From Chloroflexota bacterium (lineage in GTDB: Bacteria > Chloroflexota > Dehalococcoidia > DSTF01 > RBG-16-68-14), in contig JADFPV010000001.1 in assembly GCA_022562155.1 (NCBI GenBank), positions 16,508 through 80,507 of the forward strand: a stretch of DNA of 64,000 nucleotides, given 5' to 3'. The notes below the pieces were generated by a model. The model was not told the origin of the DNA. It did not search any database and saw only the letters and a program-made list of their open reading frames with translations. The translations under genes were made by a program, and so were the position numbers. Shown piece by piece: positions 2,626 through 62,685 of this stretch (its first letter is position 1; each line of letters begins with the position of its first letter).

Positions 2626-3062
2626 CGCCCGTCTGGGTCTTCTTCTACGGCTCGTTCATCAACCTCGACGTCCTCGCCAAGGTCGACTATGTGCCCGAGC
2701 GTTACGAAGTCGCCCGGCTCGATGGCTACGACATCCGCATCCGCCCGCTCGCCAACCTCGTGCCGTCAGATCGCGATAGCGTCTATGGCATCGTCGCGCT
2801 CGCTACTCACTCCGAATTGGAGCGGCTGTATGGGCAGGACTGGGTCGGATTGTACCTACCTCATCCCGTCGTCGTTAGCGTCACGGGTGGGACCCTTCGG
2901 CCAGCCTTGACCTACATCGCGCCGGACATGAAGCCCAAACCACCGGTCGATGACTACGTCGATCGCATCATCGGACCGGCACGCCGCCTCGGCTTTCCCG
3001 ACTGGTATGTCGAGCGGCTGGAGAAGGAGCGGGCAGCAGATGCGGAGCATCTGCCAAGCTGA
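2616..3062 (+). CDS. Gamma-glutamylcyclotransferase (AIG2/GGACT-like) family protein; start uncertain
   Basis: The conserved N-terminal motif VWVFFYGSFINLDVL (the YGS.. signature of GGCT fold) is encoded in-frame upstream of the tracked start at 2691. No canonical ATG/GTG lies in that stretch; it overlaps the REP element. Confidence 0.55.
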   Translation: MTTPPVWVFFYGSFINLDVLAKVDYVPERYEVARLDGYDIRIRPLANLVPSDRDSVYGIVALATHSELERLYGQDWVGLYLPHPVVVSVTGGTLRPALTYIAPDMKPKPPVDDYVDRIIGPARRLGFPDWYVERLEKERAADAEHLPS

Positions 3063-3080
3063 ACCGTAGGTTCAGCCAGC
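3036..3080. repeat. REP-like element (cagatgcGGAgcatctg + ccaagctgaaccgtaggttcagcc)
   Basis: Same modules as 1590 and 2530. Confidence 0.7.
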
Positions 3081-3192
3081 AGCGCACGTAGCTCCTTCAC
3101 CCCACGCAGGCGTCTGGCTATACTGCGAGTCCCAGATATGTAATCAGGCCGCGCATCGATAGCGTGGCATGACAGGTTAAACGGAGGATCGC

Positions 3193-4254
3193 ATGTACAA
3201 GATTGCCGTAATCGGTGGCGATGGCATCGGCCCGGAGGTCGTCGCCGAGGGCCTGAAGGTCCTCGAAGCTGCGACCGCCAGGACCGGCGTCACGTACGAG
3301 CTGGAGCACTACGACCTGGGCGGTGAGCGCTATCTGCGCACCGGCGAGGCGCTCCCAGAGGGCATGGTCGACGAGTTGCGGGGCTTCGACGCGATCTTCC
3401 TGGGCGCCGTCGGCCACCCGGAGGTCGCCCCCGGCATCCTCGAGAAGGGGTTGCTGCTGCGCCTGCGCTTCGAGCTGGACCAGTACATCAACCTGCGCCC
3501 GGTGAAACTCTACCCCGGCGTCGAGACCCCCCTCGCCGGCAAGGGCCCGGAAGACATCGACTTCGTCGTCGTGCGCGAGAACACCGAGGGCCTCTACAGC
3601 GGCATGGGCGGTATCCAGTACAAGGGCACGCCGCAGGAGGTCTCGACGCAGATCCACATGACGACGCGCTTCGGCGCCGAGCGAGCGATCCGCTACGCGT
3701 TCGAGCTGACGCGAAAACGTGATCGCGAGAAGAAGCTGACGCTCTGCGCCAAGACCAACGTCCTCACGTTCGTTCACGACACCTGGTGGCGCGCGTTCAA
3801 CGAGGTCGGCGAGGCCGACTACCCGGACATCGAGCGCGACTACGCCCACGTCGACGCGACATCGATGTGGATGATCAAGAACCCGGAGTGGTTCGACGTC
3901 ATCGTCACCGAGAACATGTTCGGCGACATCATCACCGACATGGGCGCGATGATTCAGGGGGGCCTCGGCGTCGCCGCCGGCGGCAACATCAACCCGGACG
4001 GCGTCTCCATGTTCGAGCCGATCGGCGGCTCCGCGCCCAAGTACGCGGGCCAGAATGTCGCCTGCCCGATCGCCGCGATCTCCGCGGGCCAGATGCTGAT
4101 GGAGACGTTGGGCGAAGAAGAGACCGCCACCCGCATCGAGAGCGCCGTCGAACGCGCGCTGGCGTCTGGCAAGATCAAATCGCTCGCTGCGGGCAAGATG
4201 GGCATGTCCACCTCCGAAGTCGGCGACCTCATCGCAGGCTACGCAGGCGAGTAA
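3193..4254 (+). CDS. Isopropylmalate/isocitrate dehydrogenase superfamily enzyme, tartrate/D-malate dehydrogenase-like
   Basis: [17 protein letters not shown]-terminus; DQYINLRP; [12 protein letters not shown]; NMFGDIITD motifs. 353 aa. Confidence 0.65.
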
Positions 4255-7012: not shown

Positions 7013-7900
7013 TCAGTGCCGGAACCAGGGCACGAGTGCGGAGACGTGCTGCATCCGCTCGGCGTAAGCAGGCCGCCGTTGCAAGCTGCGCTTATCGAGC
7101 ATTGGGATGCTCACGATGAGGAACATGACGGTAATCGCCAGCGGGCCTGCAAGCGTCCACCACCAATCGCCGGGTCGTGCCGCAACACCGAAGAGCCAGA
7201 GGCCCCACCAGAACGAGATTTCGCCGAAGTAGTTCGGGTGGCGCGAGTGGCGCCAGAGGCCGCTGTCCATAGTCTCACCAGGTTCGCTCCTGCGGCCGAA
7301 TGCGCGCAGCTGTTCATCGGCTAGCGTTTCGATGGCTATGGCGCCCGCGGTGACGGTAACGGCAACGGCGTCGAGCCAGCCGAACGGGCGATGGCCGGCC
7401 ATAGCGGGGTAGAGCGCAAGGCAACCGAGGTACACCTGCAACGTGGGGAACAGATGGATGCCGGCGAAGCTCGCGCCCCAGTAGGCGCTGCCCGTGCTGC
7501 GTCGGATATCGGTATAGCGCCAATCCTCGTGATGCATGCCCGGCCAGCCTCGCGCCCAGTTGAACGTGAGACGCAGGCCCCACGCGGCGACGAGGGCGAG
7601 TACTAGCCAGTCTCGGGCGCCCCCATCCATGAAGTACAGGGCGATGATGGCCGGGGCAACGCTCCAATACGGATCGTACATCGACGAATTGCGCATGGTG
7701 ACGCTTGCCGCGAAGATCACTATTGTCCCGGTGAGGTCGGCCACAGCGACCACAGCGAGCGGGTACCAGTCGCGGACGGTCCAGCCGGCAGCCAGCGCCG
7801 CTGCCAGCGCGACGAGATACGCGACGACCACGACGGCAAACGCGGCCGGTCGGTTCAGTTCCCGGCCGACTTGAGGTTCAATGCTCGCGCTCACGACCAC
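7013..7900 (-). CDS. DUF1295 / steroid 5-alpha-reductase-like membrane protein
   Basis: Multi-TM; SRHPNYFGEISFWWG signature near C-terminus. Confidence 0.6.
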   Translation of the reverse strand: MVVSASIEPQVGRELNRPAAFAVVVVAYLVALAAALAAGWTVRDWYPLAVVAVADLTGTIVIFAASVTMRNSSMYDPYWSVAPAIIALYFMDGGARDWLVLALVAAWGLRLTFNWARGWPGMHHEDWRYTDIRRSTGSAYWGASFAGIHLFPTLQVYLGCLALYPAMAGHRPFGWLDAVAVTVTAGAIAIETLADEQLRAFGRRSEPGETMDSGLWRHSRHPNYFGEISFWWGLWLFGVAARPGDWWWTLAGPLAITVMFLIVSIPMLDKRSLQRRPAYAERMQHVSALVPWFRH

Positions 7901-7957
7901 ATGATACGTGACGCGTCGAGATTTCCCATGTGTAGGGGCGCATGGCCATGCGCCCAG

Positions 7958-8012
7958 CTCCCCCGGCGTCTATCCGCCGTCGGCGGAGGAGAGCGTAGCC
8001 CTACCGCATCAC
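7958..8012. repeat. Direct repeat copy A (ccggcgtcTATCCGCCGTCGGCGGAGGAGAgcGTaGCCCTACCGCA)
   Basis: ~47/52 identical to copy B at 9330..9385. Together they bracket the methyltransferase gene. Contains internal palindrome ccgccgtcggcgg. Confidence 0.7.
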
Positions 8013-8072
8013 TCGCCGCTCGCGTAAACACACTATGCTAAAGTCCGTCAACCACAGCAGGAGGGGGCGAGC

Positions 8073-9143
8073 ATGATTCTACGTATCGCAGCAGTCGGAG
8101 TTGTCTTCGCGCTCATCGCGGCTGCCCTGCGTAAAACGAGTTGGTACAGAACCAAGACCGCGTTTATCGGGTTGAAGCGTCTAGCAACGCTGTCCGAGGA
8201 GGACAAGCAAGCTGCTATCGACGGGTATAAATTCCTTCAACGAATGCAAGACGGTGAGAAGACCGAGACCGAGGATGAGACGAAAGCGGTCGCGGACTAT
8301 TACAAGGTCTTGAACAACGTGTTGTCGGTCTTCGATTTGGAGAAACTCTACCTCCCTCCATTGCTGAACGAATTTGAGGGTTTGTATGAGAATCAGTTGT
8401 TATGCGAACAAGCTGTGTTGCAGGAACTGAATCTAACGAACCCTGAAACGTCCCATCTATTGGATATGGGGTGCGGGAGAGGAAGAATTTCGCATTACCT
8501 CGCCACGCTGACCGGTGGCCAGGTATCCGGCTATAACATCGATCCGAATCAGATTGAAAACGCGATCGGCTGGGCCGCTGAATGTGGAATGAGCGATCGG
8601 CTCCACTTCAAAGTGGGCAATCATCACAATCCGCTTGAGTACGAATCAGGTACCTTCGATGGATGCTTTTCCTTCCAGGCCGTCTGGCCCTTCTTCAAGA
8701 AGGAGGAGCTGGATGACCATGCGAGAGAGATGTATCGCGTGTTGAAACCCGGAGCTCGATACTCTTGTTCTGAGTATTTGTTGACCCCTCATTTTGATTG
8801 GAACAACGAAGAGCATGTAACGCTTCAGAAAGCCTACCTTCCAACTCTGGCGGCCACTCAATCGATGTATCCAGCCGATGTCTGCGCCGCGTTGGAACGA
8901 GCGGGATTCAACATTCTCATTTCGGCGCCTTCGAGAGGCCCAGCCTGGCCGCTAGGCGAGCAGAAGCGCGATCTGATCTTGAGGGGCCGCAAAGTGGTCA
9001 GAGGCCTTGAGTCGATTCGCATGATGCCGCCATGGGTCGAAGAATTGCTCGAGCTACTTCAAACAGGTGGCCAGGCTTGGACGGATGCCGAAAAAGCTAA
9101 AATCGCCGATCTGAACTGGAGAATCGTCGCGGAGAAAGAATGA
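8073..9143 (+). CDS. Membrane-anchored class I SAM-dependent methyltransferase, sterol C-24 methyltransferase (ERG6/SMT)-like
   Basis: N-terminal TM helix. Motif I LLDMGCGRGRIS. FDGCFSFQAVWPF / MYRVLKPGARY / TPHFDWNNEEH regions parallel the ERG6 regions FDKVYAIEATCHAP / IYKVLKPGG / YDENNPEH (recalled from memory), but the YEYGWG sterol-binding motif is not conserved. Low-GC codon usage; strong RBS aggaggggg. Confidence 0.6.
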   Translation: MILRIAAVGVVFALIAAALRKTSWYRTKTAFIGLKRLATLSEEDKQAAIDGYKFLQRMQDGEKTETEDETKAVADYYKVLNNVLSVFDLEKLYLPPLLNEFEGLYENQLLCEQAVLQELNLTNPETSHLLDMGCGRGRISHYLATLTGGQVSGYNIDPNQIENAIGWAAECGMSDRLHFKVGNHHNPLEYESGTFDGCFSFQAVWPFFKKEELDDHAREMYRVLKPGARYSCSEYLLTPHFDWNNEEHVTLQKAYLPTLAATQSMYPADVCAALERAGFNILISAPSRGPAWPLGEQKRDLILRGRKVVRGLESIRMMPPWVEELLELLQTGGQAWTDAEKAKIADLNWRIVAEKE

Positions 9144-9179
9144 TCGTGTACGGTAAGGCAGCCAGCAAAGTCCAAGCTT

Positions 9180-9300
9180 ACCCGCAGGATAAGCCGTTCC
9201 GCAAAGCTGAGCCTACGCCTCAGCCTGTCACTCTGAGCGAAGCTGCCTGCCCTGAGCGGAGCCGAAGGGAAGAGGCTAATCCGCCTCGCCGACACGCTGG
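9180..9300. repeat. Cluster of short GC hairpins (gctgagcctacgcctcagc; gtcactctgagcgaagc; ctgccctgagcggagc)
   Basis: Read directly. The module ctgtcactctgagcg recurs at 62017..62040. Confidence 0.55.
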
Positions 9301-9329
9301 CAAACCAGCAGCACGACTCGCCGGCAGGT

Positions 9330-9385
9330 CCCCTCTCCCGGCGTTTATCCGCCGTTGGCGGAGGAGAAGGTGGCCCTACCGCAAA
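9330..9385. repeat. Direct repeat copy B (ccggcgttTATCCGCCGTTGGCGGAGGAGAagGTgGCCCTACCGCA)
   Basis: Pairs with 7958..8012. Confidence 0.7.
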
Positions 9386-9461
9386 GCGGGAGGGCCGGGT
9401 GAGCGCACCACGGCCAGCTCGCCGAGGTGGGCGGGACGGCGAGGACAGTGCGGATTGTGGG

Positions 9462-10298
9462 TCAGGCCTGCTTCAAACCCCGGGCCTTGATGAGGTCTTC
9501 AACCGTCTCGACCACAGTGGAAGCCTTGTAGACGACTCCCAGATCTATCATCTCTCTCGTCTTCACAAATGGTACCTGCGCCGTAGGGATTGACCTAAAA
9601 CCAATCTCTCCTTCATCTTCCCTATATGCGACTTGGCCGACCAGCCCGAGAAAGATGATCCTACTTCCCACCACGAGGCCCTTCATGGTCGAGTAACTGC
9701 CAACGTTGTGGATGAAGACTGGGCTTCCGCTTGAGCCCGGAAAGACCGATGCATCTATCAAAAAGACTGGTTCGCCGTTGTAATCGAGAGCCAGCGGCGT
9801 TGCGGTTGTCCCTCTTCGCATGATCGGCGTAAGGTTCTTGGTATCTAACAGACCGTTCGGATAGCCGACGAAAACCACCTCTTCCAGTGCATCTAGTTCC
9901 TCGATCTGCTCTTCTGTCGGAATCCAGTCGCTTGGGACGAACCTGAAGAAAATCTGCTTCTTCAGCTCCCTGATCTTCGTGATGAGGGGGCCCAAGGGCA
10001 TCACTGCTACGTCGACCTCGTCCCGGGGATGCCCGTGCCACTGTGAGGCGGCATCTTCAATTGTGAACCCGACGGCCTTCCCGATTACGGGTTCCTTGCC
10101 ATCGCTCGCTGTAAAGAAGAAACGAGCGGTCTCCGCGCGCTCCACTACGTGTTTGTTGGTCACAAGTACCGGTACGGCGGCGTCATCCTTGAGATAGTTG
10201 AATACGAACGTCGTAGCGGTACCAGCCCCAGTCGGGCCAACGGTCTCAAGCCGTACGGTACTGAAGAGAAGCTGTTGCGCTAGAGTTTCGACCTTCAT
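9462..10298 (-). CDS. Cytoplasmic trypsin-like (S1/Trypsin_2 fold) serine protease
   Basis: No signal peptide. His region VLVTNKHVV; catalytic Ser motif GSSGSPVF; Asp region. Lower GC than genome. Confidence 0.65.
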   Translation of the reverse strand: MKVETLAQQLLFSTVRLETVGPTGAGTATTFVFNYLKDDAAVPVLVTNKHVVERAETARFFFTASDGKEPVIGKAVGFTIEDAASQWHGHPRDEVDVAVMPLGPLITKIRELKKQIFFRFVPSDWIPTEEQIEELDALEEVVFVGYPNGLLDTKNLTPIMRRGTTATPLALDYNGEPVFLIDASVFPGSSGSPVFIHNVGSYSTMKGLVVGSRIIFLGLVGQVAYREDEGEIGFRSIPTAQVPFVKTREMIDLGVVYKASTVVETVEDLIKARGLKQA

Positions 10299-10313
10299 CT
10301 CTCGGTTGCGAGG

Positions 10314-10547
10314 CTACCTTGGCTCATAGCGAAGGGGCCGACCTTCAGCCCTAAACAGGTGCGGATACTTCCTTACTCGGGCACTGATCTGACTAGGAGG
10401 AGGGTAGTCGCCGTCGTGGCGAACGTAAAGGCCACGCCGCTCGATCTCGGCTGAGATCTCTCGCGCAGGTAGCTGGCGCCCTACCCTACGCAGGACGTCT
10501 AGTATCGCTTCGTGGAGCGTGACCTGCTCAGGCGTGCGATTCGGCAC
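10314..10547 (-). CDS. HARE-HTH (winged-helix) small DNA-binding protein
   Basis: TLHEAILDVLRRVGRQLPAREISAEIERRGLYV...ISARVRKYPHLFRAEGRPLRYE matches the HARE-HTH/Mrr_N-like pattern. Probable GTG start at 10547 with GGGAGAG SD (the tracked ORF extends to 10622). 15-nt gap to the protease start. Confidence 0.55.
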   Translation of the reverse strand: MPNRTPEQVTLHEAILDVLRRVGRQLPAREISAEIERRGLYVRHDGDYPPPSQISARVRKYPHLFRAEGRPLRYEPR

Positions 10548-10994
10548 TGGTACTCTCCCGGCTCTCGGTCCGCCACCTGACCCTAAGCGCTCTCGCTTCT
10601 GGCTTCTACTATCGCAACCCACCCGCTATCCTAGCACCTCGCCCACCGTATGCTCCGTCGGAGCGAACCGCTCCGGCTCGCTGGCGATCGTGACCACCGC
10701 AGCCGCCACCTTCTCCTGGCTGGCGGACGCGATCTGCAGGCCAGGACGCCACCATCCTCTTCAGGCTCTCGCTGCTAGCTGTTACGCTCGACAGGCCATC
10801 GTCCAAGTTACCCAACGGGTAGCCGGGTACCTTACCAACTAAATCGCACCGGCGTCGCGAAAAACAACGTGAATCTACCACCGGATTCAATCAACCAAAA
10901 CCGTCTAAAACGGCCTCGACTCGAATCTGACCGGTTTCCAAAACCGCGATTTTAATCAAACAATCAAAACGGCCAGATCAGTCGTAGGGGCGCT

Positions 10995-57197: not shown

Positions 57198-57262
57198 CGG
57201 ACGCCTTAGCGTCCGCGGATGCCGTCAGGCATCCGAACGGGATGCTTTCAGGCATCCCCGTA
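57198..57262. repeat. Three tandem GC hairpins (gacgcCTTAgcgtc; gatgccGTCAggcatc; ggatgcTTTCAGgcatcc)
   Basis: Read directly. Overlaps the 3' end of the WYL regulator gene, upstream of the VOC-PPOX-ligA genes. Confidence 0.6.
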
Positions 57263-58177
57263 TGCCTCGGCCAACGCACGTGCTTCGTCCCGTACGCGTT
57301 CGACCACGAGTTCAGGCGAGAGCACTCGGGCTGATGCACCCCAGCTTAAGAGCCAGGGCAAAAGTCGCCGCAGGTCGCGCGACTCGTACACGAACACGGA
57401 CCCGCCTTCGCTCTGCTCCTCGCCCCGCAAGCCGTAGGCGGGCGCCTCCCGCGCCCACGGAACACTCGATGCCTCTATCCAGACACGAACTTCTTGGTAT
57501 TCTCCTTCGTGATAGGTCGACTTGAGATCGACGTCAGCAAGTCGTTCGAAGCGCTCGTCCAGCAACTCCGCCTCGCGGATGCGTCCTGCCCGAAAGTCGC
57601 GCATCTCCTGCCGCAGGCGGCAGTAGGCGACCAGGTGCCAGTCGTTGCCGTAGTGGACGAGGTAGTACGGCTCCACCTGCCGTTCGGTTAGCTCGTCAGA
57701 CCCAAACGAGTGATAGCGTAACTCCAGCACACGGTCGTGGATCACCGCCTGCTGGAGGATCGGTAGCCATGGCGTCGTTTCTTGCTGCGTCCACCGGGAC
57801 ACGCGGATGCGCTCACGAAGGCGGTCGACCTCCTCGCGTGTCTCCGGCCGCAGCGCTGCTTCGACCTTCGTGGCGGCTGACTTCGTAGCCTCGCGTTGGC
57901 CTGCCGTGCCCAATCCGAGCGCGAGGTCGCTCCCGAGGAGGAGCTGGACAGCCTCCTCCGCCGTGAACGCGATCGGAGGCAGGTGATAGCCCTCCACTAG
58001 GCGGTAGCCCTCGCCGGGCATCGCCGCGACGGGCACGCCCGCATCACAAAGCGCGTCGATGTCGCGGTAGATCGTGCGCACCGAACACTCGCAGACCTCA
58101 GCGAGGTCAGCGGCTCGCACGGGACGCTCTTCCCGCAGTCGCATGAGGATCAACAGGCGACGGTCCATCTGCTTCAT
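57248..58177 (-). CDS. HTH-WYL-WCX transcriptional regulator (PafBC/YafY-like)
   Basis: N-terminal wHTH VRTIYRDIDAL; central WYL domain; C-terminal WCX. Confidence 0.8.
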   Translation of the reverse strand: MKQMDRRLLILMRLREERPVRAADLAEVCECSVRTIYRDIDALCDAGVPVAAMPGEGYRLVEGYHLPPIAFTAEEAVQLLLGSDLALGLGTAGQREATKSAATKVEAALRPETREEVDRLRERIRVSRWTQQETTPWLPILQQAVIHDRVLELRYHSFGSDELTERQVEPYYLVHYGNDWHLVAYCRLRQEMRDFRAGRIREAELLDERFERLADVDLKSTYHEGEYQEVRVWIEASSVPWAREAPAYGLRGEEQSEGGSVFVYESRDLRRLLPWLLSWGASARVLSPELVVERVRDEARALAEAYGDA

Positions 58178-58222: not shown

Positions 58223-58849
58223 ATGGCCAGAAAACGCGTCATCATCCTAGATTACGGCGCCGGGAACCTGAGGAGCGTTGCCCGTGCGGTCGAGCACCTT
58301 GGATTCACGCCCGACGTGTCCGACGATCCACGCGCTCTGGATGACGCCGACGCCGTGATCATGCCCGGCGTCGGTGCTGCTGCCGATACGATGCGCAATC
58401 TGGACGAACGCCACTTCAGCGATCCGCTCCGTGAATACATCAAGTCTGGCCGGCCGTTCTTAGGCGTGTGTATGGGCCTCCAGGCACTCCTGACTGTGAG
58501 CGAAGAGGGCGGCGAGCACAGATGCTTGGACGTGGTTGAAGGGCGGGTCCGCCGATTCGAGCGCAAAGGCGACATGAAGATCCCCCACATGGGCTGGAAC
58601 GCCGTCGAGCAGGTGCGGGAGCACCCCGTATTCGCTGGGATTCCAGATGGCAGCTTCTTCTACTTTGTGCATGGCTACTACCCAGACCCTGAGGACGAAT
58701 CGATCGTGATTGGGCGTACTGACTACGGTGGGCCGTTCGCGTCCGTCATTGCCTGTGACAACCTGATCGCGACGCAGTTTCACCCAGAGAAGAGCGGCAA
58801 GGTGGGCTTGCAGCTGTATCAGAACTTCCTAGAGGACGCGGTTTCATGA
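58223..58849 (+). CDS. hisH: Imidazole glycerol phosphate synthase glutaminase subunit
   Basis: GVCMG catalytic Cys, HxE. Confidence 0.9.
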   Translation: MARKRVIILDYGAGNLRSVARAVEHLGFTPDVSDDPRALDDADAVIMPGVGAAADTMRNLDERHFSDPLREYIKSGRPFLGVCMGLQALLTVSEEGGEHRCLDVVEGRVRRFERKGDMKIPHMGWNAVEQVREHPVFAGIPDGSFFYFVHGYYPDPEDESIVIGRTDYGGPFASVIACDNLIATQFHPEKSGKVGLQLYQNFLEDAVS

Positions 58850-59247
58850 GCCGCGATAACGACGGCGTCGAGATCGATTTCCCGTTCTTCCGTTTCTACG
58901 CGGGCAGCCGGGGCGTCCACATTGGTTCTTCCGATGACGAGGGGGTGATTGACATGGAGATGGATGATGCGGCCGAGTATCGGCAAGTCCGACGAATTGT
59001 CCGGCGGAGGTTGCGCTTCGTGCGACATCTGTTTGTCTACCTGGCTCTCAACGCGTTCTTCGTCCTGATCGACTGGCAGACCGGCGGCTCGGGTAGAGGC
59101 ATCTCCTGGTCGATCTGGGTCGCCGCCATCTGGGGCGTCTTCCTAGCCTGGGAGTTCGTCTCCAACTTCGTCGCTCCTTACCTCTGGGGTCGCAATATAG
59201 AGGAGCGGCTGATCCAACGAGAGCTGCGCCGCAGACGCGAAGGCTGA
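58846..59247 (+). CDS. 2TM-domain small membrane protein
   Basis: Arg-rich segment followed by two TM helices. Confidence 0.45.
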   Translation: MSRDNDGVEIDFPFFRFYAGSRGVHIGSSDDEGVIDMEMDDAAEYRQVRRIVRRRLRFVRHLFVYLALNAFFVLIDWQTGGSGRGISWSIWVAAIWGVFLAWEFVSNFVAPYLWGRNIEERLIQRELRRRREG

Positions 59248-59251
59248 TCAC

Positions 59252-59974
59252 GTGGAAGTCATCCCTGCAATCGACCTGCGTGGCGGCCGTTGCGTTCGTC
59301 TGACGCAGGGTGACTACGACCGCGAAACCGTCTTTTCCGACGACCCTGTTGAGATGGCCCGGCGCTGGGAGGCGCAGGGCGCGACGCGCATCCACGTCGT
59401 CGACCTCAATGGCGCGCGCAAAGGCCAATCGATCAACGGTGAGGTTGTTCGGAAGATCATCGAGGCTGTCGAGCCCCCCGTGCAAGTCGCGGGCGGTGTG
59501 CGCACGCTCGATGCAGTTCAGACGTGGCTCGATCTCGGAGCCGACCGCGTCATCTTAGGCACCGCGGCTGTCCGCGATCCGGAACTCGCGGCCGAGGCGG
59601 CACGCCGGCACGGAGAGCGCATCGTCGTGTCCATCGATGCGCGCGGCGGTGTCGTTGCGGTTGAAGGCTGGCGGGAGGAAACGAAGCTCGATGCCGAATC
59701 GTTCCTCCAGACGCTGTCGGCGTTGGGTGTGCCACGCTTCGTGTACACCGACATCAACCGCGATGCGATGCTCGATTCGCCGAACTACGAGATGGTCGAA
59801 AAGATGGTCGGCGCCACGGAGCGTCCCATAATCGCCGCCGGCGGCGTTGCGGATGTAGAGAACCTCGTGCGCCTCGCCGAACTAGGCGTGGAAGGCGCTA
59901 TCGTCGGCCTCGCGCTGTACGACGGCCGCGTCCAGCTCCCCGAAGCGCTGAGGCGACTGGAACTGCTACCCTAG
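59252..59974 (+). CDS. hisA: ProFAR isomerase HisA
   Basis: VIPAIDL...G; TIM barrel phosphate-binding motifs. Confidence 0.9.
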   Translation: MEVIPAIDLRGGRCVRLTQGDYDRETVFSDDPVEMARRWEAQGATRIHVVDLNGARKGQSINGEVVRKIIEAVEPPVQVAGGVRTLDAVQTWLDLGADRVILGTAAVRDPELAAEAARRHGERIVVSIDARGGVVAVEGWREETKLDAESFLQTLSALGVPRFVYTDINRDAMLDSPNYEMVEKMVGATERPIIAAGGVADVENLVRLAELGVEGAIVGLALYDGRVQLPEALRRLELLP

Positions 59975-60005
59975 CTTAGGTAGAATTTGCAGGGTCGGCG
60001 GTTAG

Positions 60006-60395
60006 ATGGCTATGAAGCAAGTCGTGACATGGAGAACAGGCGCACTGATAGCGCTCCTGGCGCATGCGCTGTTGCTCATGTCCGCAGCGTTCACTATCGC
60101 GATACTGGCTGCCGTTGGGAAGGAGATCGACGTTCGGGTCGAGATCGATGAGCAGATTGTCGCCCTCCTGGTATTCGCAGCGGTCATTCCCTACGTTCCC
60201 ATCTTCGTGTTGTACGTGCCCACTGTAGCTTCCAGGCTGCGAGTCACTGGGTTCGGCTTCAAGCTAGGCCCGTTCGAGGTCAAGGGCGAGCTGAGTGATG
60301 AGTATGATGAGACGGCAAGACATTTGAGGGCTGCCGAGTCCGAAGTTGATATAATGATTGAGGGAGTTCGGCATCAGATTGGTGAGGATCTCTAA
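60006..60395 (+). CDS. Small 3-TM membrane protein with acidic C-terminal tail (inserted in his operon)
   Basis: Low-GC ORF; three hydrophobic helices. Confidence 0.45.
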   Translation: MAMKQVVTWRTGALIALLAHALLLMSAAFTIAILAAVGKEIDVRVEIDEQIVALLVFAAVIPYVPIFVLYVPTVASRLRVTGFGFKLGPFEVKGELSDEYDETARHLRAAESEVDIMIEGVRHQIGEDL

Positions 60396-60397
60396 CC

Positions 60398-60823
60398 ATG
60401 AACATGGAATCAGAAGTCTCCAGTTTCAGTGCGACAGACCAACCCGAGTTGGCTCTTGTCGAGATGCGACGCGGGCTTGAGAGAAAGTTGAGACGGCTGG
60501 CTGACGCTGTGCCTCCGCCGGACATGGGTGGTTTGCTAGGGGAAACAAAGTCTTCCACCGAGCTACTTACAGGACTGAAAGAGTGCGGCGTATTGAGCAA
60601 AAACCTGGCAGCCTCAGTCCACGGTGTCCTGAAGCTAGCCACCCCTGCTGCTCACGGGATACGAGTCAGTCCTGCAGATGCGGCTAGAACGATAGATCTC
60701 GGCGACTCCGTTGTTGAAATCCTTGATCAGCTGATAAGTGTTGCGACCCCGTTCTCTATAAGTGAACCGGCCGCTGGTGTTGCAGAACCAACTGCTGAAT
60801 CTAGACCGGCCGACCAAGGCTGA
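60398..60823 (+). CDS. DUF4145/HEPN-like small cytoplasmic protein
   Basis: LALVEMRRGLERKLRRLAD...ELLTGLKECGVLSKNLAASVHGVLKLATPAAHG resembles the DUF4145 helical pattern. Starts 2 nt after the upstream stop. Confidence 0.4.
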   Translation: MNMESEVSSFSATDQPELALVEMRRGLERKLRRLADAVPPPDMGGLLGETKSSTELLTGLKECGVLSKNLAASVHGVLKLATPAAHGIRVSPADAARTIDLGDSVVEILDQLISVATPFSISEPAAGVAEPTAESRPADQG

Positions 60824-60908
60824 CATCGTCTTCAGGCCGACCCGAGGAGACCTCCTAGTCTCGACATCGCCAGCAAATCACCGGCTCCCACTCAGCTGAG
60901 ATGAAATC

Positions 60909-61673
60909 ATGCTGACAAAGCGTGTCATTCCTTGCTTCGACGTCGAAAACGGACGCGTCGTTAAAGGCATCTCGTTCGTGGAGCTGCGCGACGCCGGTGA
61001 TCCCGTCGAACTGGCCGGCATCTACGAGGAGCAGGGCGCGGACGAGCTGGTCTTTCTCGATATCACTGCTTCTTCCGACGAGCGGCAGACCGTCTACGAC
61101 ATGGTGGCGCACGTCGCTGACCAGGTCTTCATACCGTTCACGGTCGGCGGTGGCGTCCGCAGTCCTGAGGACGCGCGCATGCTCCTCGAACTGGGCGCCG
61201 ACAAGGTGTCGCTGAACACGGCCGCCGTCGACGACCCCGAGGTGATCTCGCGGTGCGCGCAGCGTTTCGGCAACCAGAACATCGTCGTCGCCATCGACGC
61301 CAAGGGCGTCGCGGAAGGCAAATGGGAGGTCTACACCCATGGCGGCCGGAGGCCCCGCGACCTCGACGCCGTCGAGTGGGCGCGTCAGGTTGTCGAACGT
61401 GGCGCCGGCGAGATCTTGCTGACGTCGATGGACGCGGACGGCCATCAGACCGGCTACGACCTGCCGTTGACGAAAGCGATCTCGGAGGCGGTAGAGGTGC
61501 CCGTCATCGCGTCCGGCGGCTGCGGCGAGCCATCGCATATGGTCGACGCCATCCTCACCGGCAAGGCCGACGCTGTGCTTGCGGCCAGTATCTTCCACTT
61601 CGGCACCTACAGCATCGAGGAGACCAAGCGGCAGCTCGCCGAGGCCGGTATCCCCGTGCGGCCGAAGCAATAA
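60909..61673 (+). CDS. hisF: Imidazole glycerol phosphate synthase cyclase subunit
   Basis: KRVIPCLDV; conserved. Confidence 0.95.
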
Positions 61674-61685
61674 ACGAAGGAGCAG

Positions 61686-62015
61686 CATACGGACGTCAAC
61701 GAGCTAGATTTCGCCAAGGGCGACGGCATTATCCCCGCCATCATTCAGGATGCTGACAGCGGCGAGGTGCTGACGCTCTTCTATATGGATAAGGAAGCCG
61801 TCGAGAAGACGCAGCAGACCAAAGAGGTCTGGCGCTTCAGCCGCGCCGAGAACAAGCTGATGCGCAAGGGCGACACCTCAGGCAACGTCCTCCACGTCGA
61901 GAGCCTTGCCGCGGACTGCGATCAAGATGCCCTCGTTGTCCGCGTTCACCCTGTCGGGCCGGCCTGCCACACAGGCGAGCGCACCTGCTTCCACAATCCT
62001 ATGGGGCTGAGCTAG
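61686..62015 (+). CDS. hisI: Phosphoribosyl-AMP cyclohydrolase; start codon non-canonical/unclear
   Basis: The conserved N-terminal LDFAKGDGIIPAIIQDADSGEVL lies in-frame upstream of the only ATG (61767), directly after the hisF TAA. AAGGAG sits 6 nt before an ACG codon. C-terminal CHTGERTCFH zinc motif. Confidence 0.6.
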   Translation, partial: HTDVNELDFAKGDGIIPAIIQDADSGEVLTLFYMDKEAVEKTQQTKEVWRFSRAENKLMRKGDTSGNVLHVESLAADCDQDALVVRVHPVGPACHTGERTCFHNPMGLS

Positions 62016-62058: not shown

Positions 62059-62685
62059 TTGCGGTCATCATGCCTTGTTGTGGGCGGGGCCTGCTATATT
62101 ACGTCCGTTATGTGGCGGTCCGTTGTTGCGATCACGTTTCTCCTCTTCCTCTCCGCATGCGCGAGTTCCGCGAACGCGCCAACGGTCCAGCCATTTCCGA
62201 CATCAACCGTGCTTTCGAAAGATCAGGCGCTAAGCTCTTGCGAGACACTGGAAGACGTGCCTAACGCTGTACTCTCCTACGGGGATCAGAGACAAGACGA
62301 CGCAAGGATGGCGATAAATTGGCAGTTCGACGACTGCGCCATCACTGGCCATCCTTTCGTCACGCTACCGCTTCCGCCCTCTGTGATTCGCATTCCGCGT
62401 GGTGAAAGGCCAGTGCTGGAATTTTCGGCTCAGCCAGAGTCTGTTTCGGGTTACGCCTGGGAACCCGCTTTCGACAAGGTGGAGGAGTCATCGAGCAACC
62501 GGCTGGAGGTACCCCTCGACGATCTCCGCCGCTCTACGCTGATCGATCTAGAGTTTGAACCGTCTATCTCGCAGGTGCTGGACCTTAGTGCGCTGCCACC
62601 GGCTGAGTATGCCATAGAGGTGTTTACTGGTTGGCGCAGAGGGTCGTCAGGATTCGCATTCCGCGTAGAAATCATAGAGCCTTAG
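62059..62685 (+). CDS. Hypothetical lipoprotein
   Basis: Signal + LSACASS lipobox; lower GC; no family recognised. Confidence 0.4.
   Translation: MRSSCLVVGGACYITSVMWRSVVAITFLLFLSACASSANAPTVQPFPTSTVLSKDQALSSCETLEDVPNAVLSYGDQRQDDARMAINWQFDDCAITGHPFVTLPLPPSVIRIPRGERPVLEFSAQPESVSGYAWEPAFDKVEESSSNRLEVPLDDLRRSTLIDLEFEPSISQVLDLSALPPAEYAIEVFTGWRRGSSGFAFRVEIIEP

Follow-up and report, generated by a model that had tools for sequence, protein, structure and literature searches.

The locus described here raises the question of why two small genes of unusual composition should lie between hisA and hisF inside a histidine operon, and what kind of system they might encode. The window, meaning the whole 64,000-nt stretch of a Chloroflexota contig that was analysed, belongs to a Chloroflexota metagenome-assembled genome (MAG), and the proteins of the two genes, open reading frames (ORFs) which we call ORF1 and ORF2, are MCH7697379.1 and MCH7697380.1 (tags IH865_00370/00375). 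We give about an even chance to the reading that the pair is a split, membrane-anchored, Arg-less DUF4145 module of conflict-system ancestry, which lies without a promoter of its own in the his operon and works as one unit with a signal-gated output. Most likely it is an uncommon cassette for stress or defence that is carried along by a biosynthetic operon.

ORF1 (60006-60395, +) encodes a membrane protein of 129 aa and ORF2 (60398-60823, +) a soluble helical protein of 141 aa. The TAA stop of ORF1 (60393-60395) and the ATG of ORF2 (60398) are separated by 2 nt, and a Shine-Dalgarno-like GTGAGGA (60382-60388, +) lies within the 3' end of ORF1, 9 nt upstream of that ATG, a placement that is consistent with translational coupling. 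An earlier, sequence-only reading of this DNA had described two coupled ORFs of these lengths and this spacing with visibly lower guanine-plus-cytosine (GC) content, and its coordinates agree exactly with ours. The difference in composition is also real: GC is 0.549 in ORF1 and in ORF2 vs 0.626 for the window, and only 1.5% of 818-nt windows are as GC-poor as the pair (z = -3.1). At third codon positions (GC3) the values are 0.65 for ORF1 and 0.50 for ORF2 vs 0.74-0.84 in the his genes. Scans for RNAs and signals found no terminators, promoters or Rfam families in or around the pair, including the 85-nt spacer before hisF (60824-60908, +), so the pair is presumably transcribed together with the his genes.

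Both frames have homologues and are under purifying selection, and on that ground we take them to be real genes. In the MAG SZUA-185 (L002 and L004; L001 is an independent Logan assembly) the order hisH-2TM-hisA-ORF1-ORF2-hisF-hisI is syntenic with that of the window. When the two genomes are compared using L002, the ratio of nonsynonymous to synonymous substitution rates (dN/dS) is 0.31 for ORF1, and 0.40 and 0.28 for the N-terminal and C-terminal parts of ORF2, vs 0.04-0.09 for the his genes. The pair has a dS of 0.7-0.8 and the genes beside it have one of 1.0-1.8. The homologues of ORF1 are P0004 (72% identity) and a partial gene on the short contig L003, and the true start of ORF1 may be an alternative ATG at 60012, which matches the start in L002. 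By these comparisons ORF1 and ORF2 are genuine coding genes under purifying but relaxed selection, and the insertion of the pair predates the split of the window genome and SZUA-185. An antisense ORF at 60280-60642 was ruled out as a coding frame, as the homologues and the dN/dS signal lie in the plus frames.

In SZUA-185 itself ORF2 (L002 10429-10822) carries a 1-nt insertion that divides it into frames of 97 aa and 59 aa, with ORF1 intact. The insertion is seen in all three assemblies and lies outside any long homopolymer. The part of ORF2 past the frameshift is still under purifying selection, so the break is probably recent, and it looks like a recent pseudogenisation. This brings up the possibility that the whole pair is an evolutionary relic, that is, a cassette inserted once in an ancestor that now drifts without present function and is kept inside an essential operon. 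Although the raised dN/dS (0.3-0.4 vs 0.04-0.09 in the neighbours), the low GC3, the frameshift, the absence of the pair from two related genomes (L005 and L008) and the finding of singleton clusters only would all suit a relic, we think it very improbable, as dN/dS is well below 1 for ORF1 and for ORF2, before and after the frameshift alike. The window also has intact frames for the two genes, ORF2 is intact and the partial ORF1 open in L003 despite only 31-43% identity, and motifs are kept across 16 distant relatives.

The family of ORF2 is best judged from its relatives. Word-indexed protein searches with ORF1 and ORF2 returned the queries themselves and one relative each, and an exhaustive phmmer search of 1.84 billion representatives with ORF2 returned 17 proteins, ORF2 included. 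In our alignment of the ORF2 family (A2, 16 sequences), 11 of the 16 match the DUF4145 model (PF13643), for which the Pfam gathering score is 23.1 bits. The closest full-length homologue of ORF2, P0005 (41% identity, E 5.6e-15), scores 23.3 bits, and P0009, P0016 and P0017 score 25.8, 25.3 and 31.8 bits, while a consensus emitted from the whole family reaches 35.9 bits and one from the four-member close group 26.4 bits. The other recurring matches of the consensus are to HEPN-clan models only (HepT-like, HEPN_MAE_28990 and HEPN_Swt1). Judged by these profiles, membership in DUF4145 holds at the level of the family and not for ORF2 as a single sequence. The likeness to DUF4145 and HEPN proteins suggested by the sequence-only reading is thus upheld indirectly, through the relatives, the consensus and the fold; in the Pfam search that it had named as a check, these four relatives and the consensus passed the gathering score and ORF2 itself gave no match.

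The fold comes from a confident AlphaFold2 model of ORF2 built on the 16-sequence alignment (predicted local distance difference test, pLDDT, 83; predicted template-modelling score, pTM, 0.70), which has helices at residues 16-37, 53-62, 68-85 and 92-116 and a disordered tail at 117-141. When this model was compared with the Protein Data Bank (PDB) using Foldseek, HEPN proteins came out on top: 1wwp, HepT (7bxo, 5yep, 6m6w), the 7ae8/7ae9 HEPN toxin, YutE, HI0074 and MtlR. Sequence searches of the PDB with ORF2 and with the family profile gave chance-level matches only. In the model H86 directly follows the third helix (68-85), and the end of the third helix is the position of the HEPN motif (PMC3710099). 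ORF2 also contains E28-x3-R32, an instance of the Ex3[KR] motif that has been described for HEPN proteins alongside the Rx4-6H motif required by HEPN ribonucleases (RNases) (PMC3710099). Based on the profile matches of its relatives and consensus, the fold, the position of H86 and the Ex3[KR] motif, ORF2 is probably a very divergent DUF4145/HEPN-fold protein, a view that is supported indirectly.

It is less clear that such a protein would cleave RNA. RAZR, the one characterised DUF4145 enzyme, depends on H154 and on R146, which precedes that His by eight residues (PMC13017515). At the positions five to eight residues before its His (H-5 to H-8) ORF2 has A81, L80, K79 and L78, so the catalytic Arg is absent, and in 15 of the 16 members of A2 the same columns, described as non-basic, have no canonical Arg. 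The sequence-only reading had remarked on a K in place of the R of an Rx4-6H-like motif. K79 does sit at the Rx6H position, but the replacement is not meaningful because the family as a whole has no Arg at H-5 to H-8, and the column itself is unconserved (E, E, K and S in the closest relatives). The conserved residues of ORF2 are P16, R24 (60467-60469), E28 (60479-60481), H86-G87 (60653-60658) and A95; in A2 both H86 and R24 are conserved in 15/16 and E28 is invariant. P0016 is the sole member with a canonical Rx4H (RNAAAH) and also the sole member without R24, which hints, from this one case, that the active-site Arg may have left the helix of the His for helix one. RNase activity of ORF2 is possible, but doubtful given that the catalytic Arg is missing.

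Turning to ORF1, scans of Pfam, NCBIfam, PADLOC and PHROG gave no domain match. Hydropathy and a low-confidence model agree on two hydrophobic segments (residues ~12-38 and ~50-76) with an acidic loop between them and basic flanks, where the sequence-only reading had counted three transmembrane (TM) helices; the acidic tail that it noted is there, as an acidic amphipathic C-terminal helix (97-126), and a basic FKLGPFEVKG segment is also present. We infer two TM helices with both ends in the cytoplasm. The relatives of ORF2 show what such a protein may be for. In seven of them (P0009, P0010 and P0015-P0019) an N-terminal TM region is part of the same polypeptide, and in 5/5 readable split loci (L003, L084, L090, L091 and L092/93) a small 2-TM gene abuts the ORF2-like gene or overlaps its start; on the 742-nt contig of P0005 such an overlapping gene likewise lies upstream. 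The search for the gene pair elsewhere that had been suggested from the sequence therefore did find relatives, some split and some fused.

The 2-TM proteins of the split loci and ORF1 have the common motif VALLV..A.I.P.VP, for example 'VKINTAVVALLVLALIAPLVPF...VPGGG' in L092 and 'VEIDEQIVALLVFAAVIPYVP...FKLGPFEVKG' in ORF1. BLASTP of ORF1 against the TM module gave 42% identity over 53 residues (E 0.12), and a hidden Markov model of the fused N-terminal TM regions ranked ORF1 5th of the 602 ORFs of the window (E 6.5). With hhalign the probability of a match between ORF1 and the 2-TM modules rose from 3.7% to 23% and then to 49% (E 1.7e-4) as members were added. By these alignments ORF1 is probably a homologue of the TM module of the relatives, and ORF1 and ORF2 together are probably the split form of a membrane-anchored DUF4145 protein. 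An identification of the TM module as SLATT was considered and dropped, as neither ORF1 nor any of seven related TM modules gave a SLATT Pfam match even at E <= 5.

The fused relatives also bear on how the two genes relate to each other. The sequence-only reading had offered a toxin and antitoxin as one candidate, and a classical two-gene addiction module could take the form of a HEPN toxin in ORF2 neutralised by ORF1, or of a membrane toxin in ORF1 controlled by ORF2. In seven relatives, however, a single polypeptide holds both parts. It is uncommon for a toxin to be joined to the protein that neutralises it, and the fusion suggests that ORF1 and ORF2 are one functional unit and not a neutralising pair. 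ORF1 also has no DNA-binding or MNT-like antitoxin domain, ORF2 has no canonical Rx4-6H, and neither protein matches a toxin-antitoxin model or any of the PADLOC-DB v2 protein models. We therefore consider an addiction module quite unlikely, even though the genes are small, translationally coupled and of atypical composition, the fold of ORF2 is matched best by HEPN toxins, HepT among them, a bona fide pair (HicBA) occupies the same junction in another genome (L007), and the loss of ORF2 with ORF1 intact in SZUA-185 would fit ORF2 as the toxin.

The case for a conflict-system ancestry is made by the genomic contexts of the relatives. Four detectable ORF2 homologues (P0007, P0008, P0012 and P0014, E 1e-6 to 3e-4) have a C-terminal GAAD domain, and each is preceded by an ORF1-like 2-TM gene. 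A GASH gene follows P0007, P0012 and P0014, and DO-GTPase genes also follow P0012 and P0014; the short contigs of P0008 hold neither. According to Kaur, Burroughs, Iyer and Aravind (2020, PMC7159879), GAAD is the adaptor that couples effectors to GAP1 in the GAP1-N1 GTPase-centric conflict systems. Judged by their domains and gene order, the ORF2-like domain and its TM partner fill the effector slot of such systems in the GAAD relatives. Additionally, AbiEi/AbiEii genes are adjacent in L090, P0016 lies in a defence island (Type ISP restriction-modification, Ymh, AbiTii, ArdC and a PDDEXK restriction endonuclease), and P0017 is a lone gene after cysNC/cysD. The family consensus matches the PADLOC candidates PDC-M16A and PDC-S06, and the DUF4145-like part of PDC-M16A is touched only by the consensus and P0017. 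None of GAAD, GASH, GAP1 and DO-GTPase accompanies the window pair, where ORF2 ends in its 25-residue disordered tail and the neighbours are hisA and hisF.

To see how the pair is distributed, GTDB species representatives were scanned with HisA. SZUA-185 (hisA 87% identical) has the pair, and in L006 (86%) the contig stops inside hisA, which puts the junction outside the contig. In L005 (71%) and L008 (61%), where the order is hisH-2TM-hisA-hisF, the junction is empty and 12-13 nt long. In L007 (68%), a Dehalococcoidia MAG, precisely this hisA-hisF junction is occupied by HicB and HicA genes (37.7 and 46 bits; 2913-3352; HicB-like 74 aa, HicA-like 91 aa), with a GC of 0.59-0.63 vs 0.68-0.72 in the flanks. 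A more distant Dehalococcoidia/SAR202 group has a class-I S-adenosylmethionine (SAM) methyltransferase of ~190 aa there (L020 4731-5300; also L019, L024, L031, L039, L042 and L044). In Actinobacteria the same junction often hosts impA, which is the comparison that the sequence-only reading had drawn, although the host here is a Chloroflexota MAG and not an actinobacterium. All these occupants have the operon position of the pair and are unrelated to it as proteins, and going by the gene orders the hisA-hisF junction is evidently permissive for inserted genes. The heptamer TAGAATT directly follows hisA in L005 and L008 and persists in the window to the left of the insert (59981-59987, +). Since it follows hisA at the empty junctions, it would mark the left edge of the insert and be what is left there of the hisA stop and junction of the ancestor.

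Beyond SZUA-185 the pair was found beside hisF in one more lineage. The 691-nt ENA contig L003 holds a partial ORF1 homologue (41-43% identity), then P0006 (31-34% to ORF2), then the start of hisF. This makes three lineages with the pair beside hisF, in one of which (SZUA-185) ORF2 is frameshifted. No further relatives came from two scans of metagenomes, one with each of the ORF2 and ORF1 alignments, or from a scan of viruses, and in public data the pair is exceedingly scarce, every cluster being a singleton. Its patchy presence could reflect either one old insertion followed by losses and replacement or repeated use of the same junction.

Taken together, the low GC, the patchy presence, HicBA at the same junction and the broken ORF2 of SZUA-185 argue that the pair behaves as a cassette. 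The proposal of a conflict module in a biosynthetic operon, made from the sequence alone, gains support from the GAAD, GASH and DO-GTPase contexts, the defence island and HicBA at the sister junction, though its toxin-antitoxin or abortive-infection label can plausibly be kept only if it is taken broadly, for any conflict cassette. In the mechanism we favour, ORF1 would be a two-helix membrane anchor with an acidic cytoplasmic helix, both of its ends lying in the cytoplasm, and ORF2 would be a cytoplasmic helical HEPN-like domain. The two translationally coupled products would assemble into a single complex on the cytoplasmic side of the membrane, a stand-alone version of the module without the GAAD adaptor. 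In one Chloroflexota lineage the pair would have been inserted promoterless between hisA and hisF, to be inherited there and expressed with the his operon. Its most likely activity would be a harmful function gated by a membrane or infection signal, be it the cleavage of RNA at an atypical R24/E28/H86 site or a disturbance of the membrane via ORF1, and its role that of a stress, abortive-infection or selfish cassette and not of a component of the histidine pathway.

Several of our results weigh against this reading. The first group concerns the assignment of the proteins. ORF2 itself matches no model in Pfam (even at E <= 1), NCBIfam, PADLOC or PHROG, the Foldseek statistics of its model are weak (E 0.18-2, TM-score 0.45-0.54), and the catalytic Arg is absent. 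The AlphaFold2 model of ORF1 is poor (pLDDT 54), too poor for fold comparison, and its homology to the TM module is moderately supported by sequence, the support having become moderate only once the TM proteins of the split genes were included. The second group concerns mobility. No sign of mobility was seen: a tblastn search against phages and plasmids gave no match, the viral scan gave none either, and around the pair there are no direct or inverted repeats that would suggest a transposon, an attC site or an integration scar. Low GC and GC3 are equally marked in the window, L002 (10001-10822) and L003 (2-652) despite a dS of ~0.7-0.8, with no drift toward host values across the three lineages. 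As the low GC is shared by L002 and L003 and persists over a dS of ~0.8, the pair is not a recent import.

The last of these points is the position of the genes, as every close homologue, at 31-72% protein identity, lies immediately upstream of hisF. Together with the missing signs of mobility this fits a long vertical residence and possibly a his-linked role. The sequence-only reading had held that conservation of the pair in the his operon with normal composition would count against it, and half of this was found, the close homologues all being beside hisF and the composition abnormal. A his-linked role could be that of a non-catalytic HEPN-fold regulator or adaptor, MtlR-like, in which ORF2 would bind a membrane partner via ORF1 and modulate his expression or enzyme activity. 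Such a regulator would sit well with the constant place upstream of hisF, the absent Arg, the purifying selection on the pair and the conservation of a second membrane protein (PF13239 2TM) in the same operon, and MtlR, a HEPN family that is often motif-less and found in a metabolic operon (PMC3710099), is among the fold matches of ORF2. We still consider it unlikely. The order hisH-2TM-hisA-hisF persists in L005 and L008 with no pair in it, HicBA takes its place in L007 and ORF2 is frameshifted in SZUA-185, and from this we conclude that the pair is dispensable for histidine synthesis. The distant relatives are in GTPase-centric conflict operons and a defence island and not in his operons, and the composition of the pair is atypical for the operon.

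A conflict cassette thus remains the reading that we carry forward. A bolder version of it, to which we give only a small chance, is that the pair is an undescribed two-component effector made of a dedicated 2-TM partner and a DUF4145 subfamily with a relocated Arg (an R24/E28/H86 site), in use both coupled to GAAD in GTPase-centric conflict systems and as a stand-alone cassette. In this Chloroflexota lineage it would have been stably domesticated in the his operon, where it might answer stress on the membrane or from infection by cleaving RNA or making the membrane permeable. If the reading is right it would add a membrane-partnered, Arg-less branch to the DUF4145/HEPN effectors, where only RAZR is characterised, and a TM and HEPN-like effector pair to the GTPase-centric conflict systems that the available part of the 2020 survey does not list. 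It would make the Chloroflexota hisA-hisF junction a place where small conflict cassettes settle, with HicBA in one lineage and this pair in another, and would bear on the ways in which selfish or defence genes get themselves expressed from inside essential operons. There would also be a gain for annotation, in that two 'hypothetical proteins' become a recognisable module.

The rest of the operon has some features of its own. It reads hisH (58223-58849, +), the stop of which is overlapped by 4 nt by a 133-aa PF13239 '2TM' gene (58846-59247, +), followed by hisA (59252-59974, +; PF00977, 268.6 bits; 87% identity to the hisA of L002). After the pair and the spacer come hisF (60909-61673, +; PF00977, 278.1 bits) and then hisI (+). 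The '2TM' gene is kept in L002, L005, L007 and L008 at 59-85% identity, and its dN/dS of 0.036 is below those of hisH and hisA, which makes it a strongly constrained membrane protein in a histidine operon. Directly behind the stop of hisF and an AAGGAG, hisI runs in frame through its 27 conserved N-terminal codons (61674-61766), with no ATG, GTG or TTG before 61767; L002 has an ATG there, and the hisI of the window may use a non-canonical start such as ACG 61689 or may be truncated at its N-terminus. Divergent from hisH is a regulator with HTH_11, WYL and WCX domains (57248-58177, -) that is kept in L002; WYL regulators are frequent controllers of defence or stress genes. Between hisI and a His_Phos_1 gene lies a 208-aa ORF (62059-62685, +; GC 0.56-0.58) with a signal-peptide-like N-terminus and no Pfam match, and L002 has only a 56-aa gene at this site, which makes it a second variable spot beside the operon. 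The other low-GC stretches of the window are at 7672-10560 (minimum 0.506), where one ORF is methyltransferase-like (8073-9143) and one encodes a trypsin-like protease (9462-10298).

The pair can be compared with several known systems. In HepT-MntA (HEPN-MNT), HepT of which is among the best structural matches of ORF2, the cassette is likewise small and of two genes with the HEPN gene second, but here both the nucleotidyltransferase partner and the Rx4H are lacking, and the sequence likeness of ORF2 consists of sub-threshold matches to HepT-like Pfam models (E 0.02-0.04). Type II toxin-antitoxin systems are defined by a toxin and a separate antitoxin with a domain that binds DNA or is otherwise recognised as neutralising, and ORF1 has no domain match. 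MtlR, found in the mannitol operon and often without a catalytic motif (PMC3710099), resembles ORF2 in being a HEPN fold in a metabolic operon and is a weak fold match at rank 27; it differs in its operon, in having no membrane partner, and in that no sequence relationship to ORF2 was shown.

The DUF4145 proteins are closer, and they are typical of defence and conflict contexts (PMC3710099; PMC13017515). RAZR (PD-T7-4), a zinc finger joined to a DUF4145 RNase, is like ORF2 at the profile level, in the HEPN-like helical fold and in the His that ends the third helix. It differs in that R146 has no counterpart in ORF2, where L78 takes its place, in that the window pair has a membrane partner and no zinc finger, and in that ORF2 is below the Pfam threshold. 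Membrane-associated DUF4145 HEPN proteins with an N-terminal TM domain bearing a WP signature were described by Anantharaman et al. (2013, PMC3710099), and going by that description they have the same layout of a TM anchor and a cytoplasmic DUF4145 domain. Their proposed logic, a membrane stimulus coupled to a cytoplasmic HEPN domain, can also be likened to that of the pair. The WP follows the first TM helix in our fused relatives P0016 and P0018, and the Pro is kept in P0009, P0015, P0017 and P0019, whereas ORF1 is a separate gene without a WP or equivalent Pro after its first hydrophobic segment, and the motif Arg is absent from the family except in P0016. The effector-plus-GAAD proteins of GAP1-N1 systems include relatives homologous to ORF2 that come with an ORF1-like 2-TM gene, and differ from the window pair in the GAAD, GASH, GAP1 and DO-GTPase that it does not have; among the effectors in the available part of Kaur et al. 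(2020, PMC7159879), a TM and HEPN-like pair is not included. DUF4145 proteins, membrane-tethered HEPN domains and GAAD-coupled effectors are thus already known. What appears to be undescribed so far is the Arg-less subfamily with a dedicated 2-TM partner, fused or split, the use of a TM and HEPN-like pair as an effector in GTPase-centric systems, and the stable residence of such a pair at the hisA-hisF junction.

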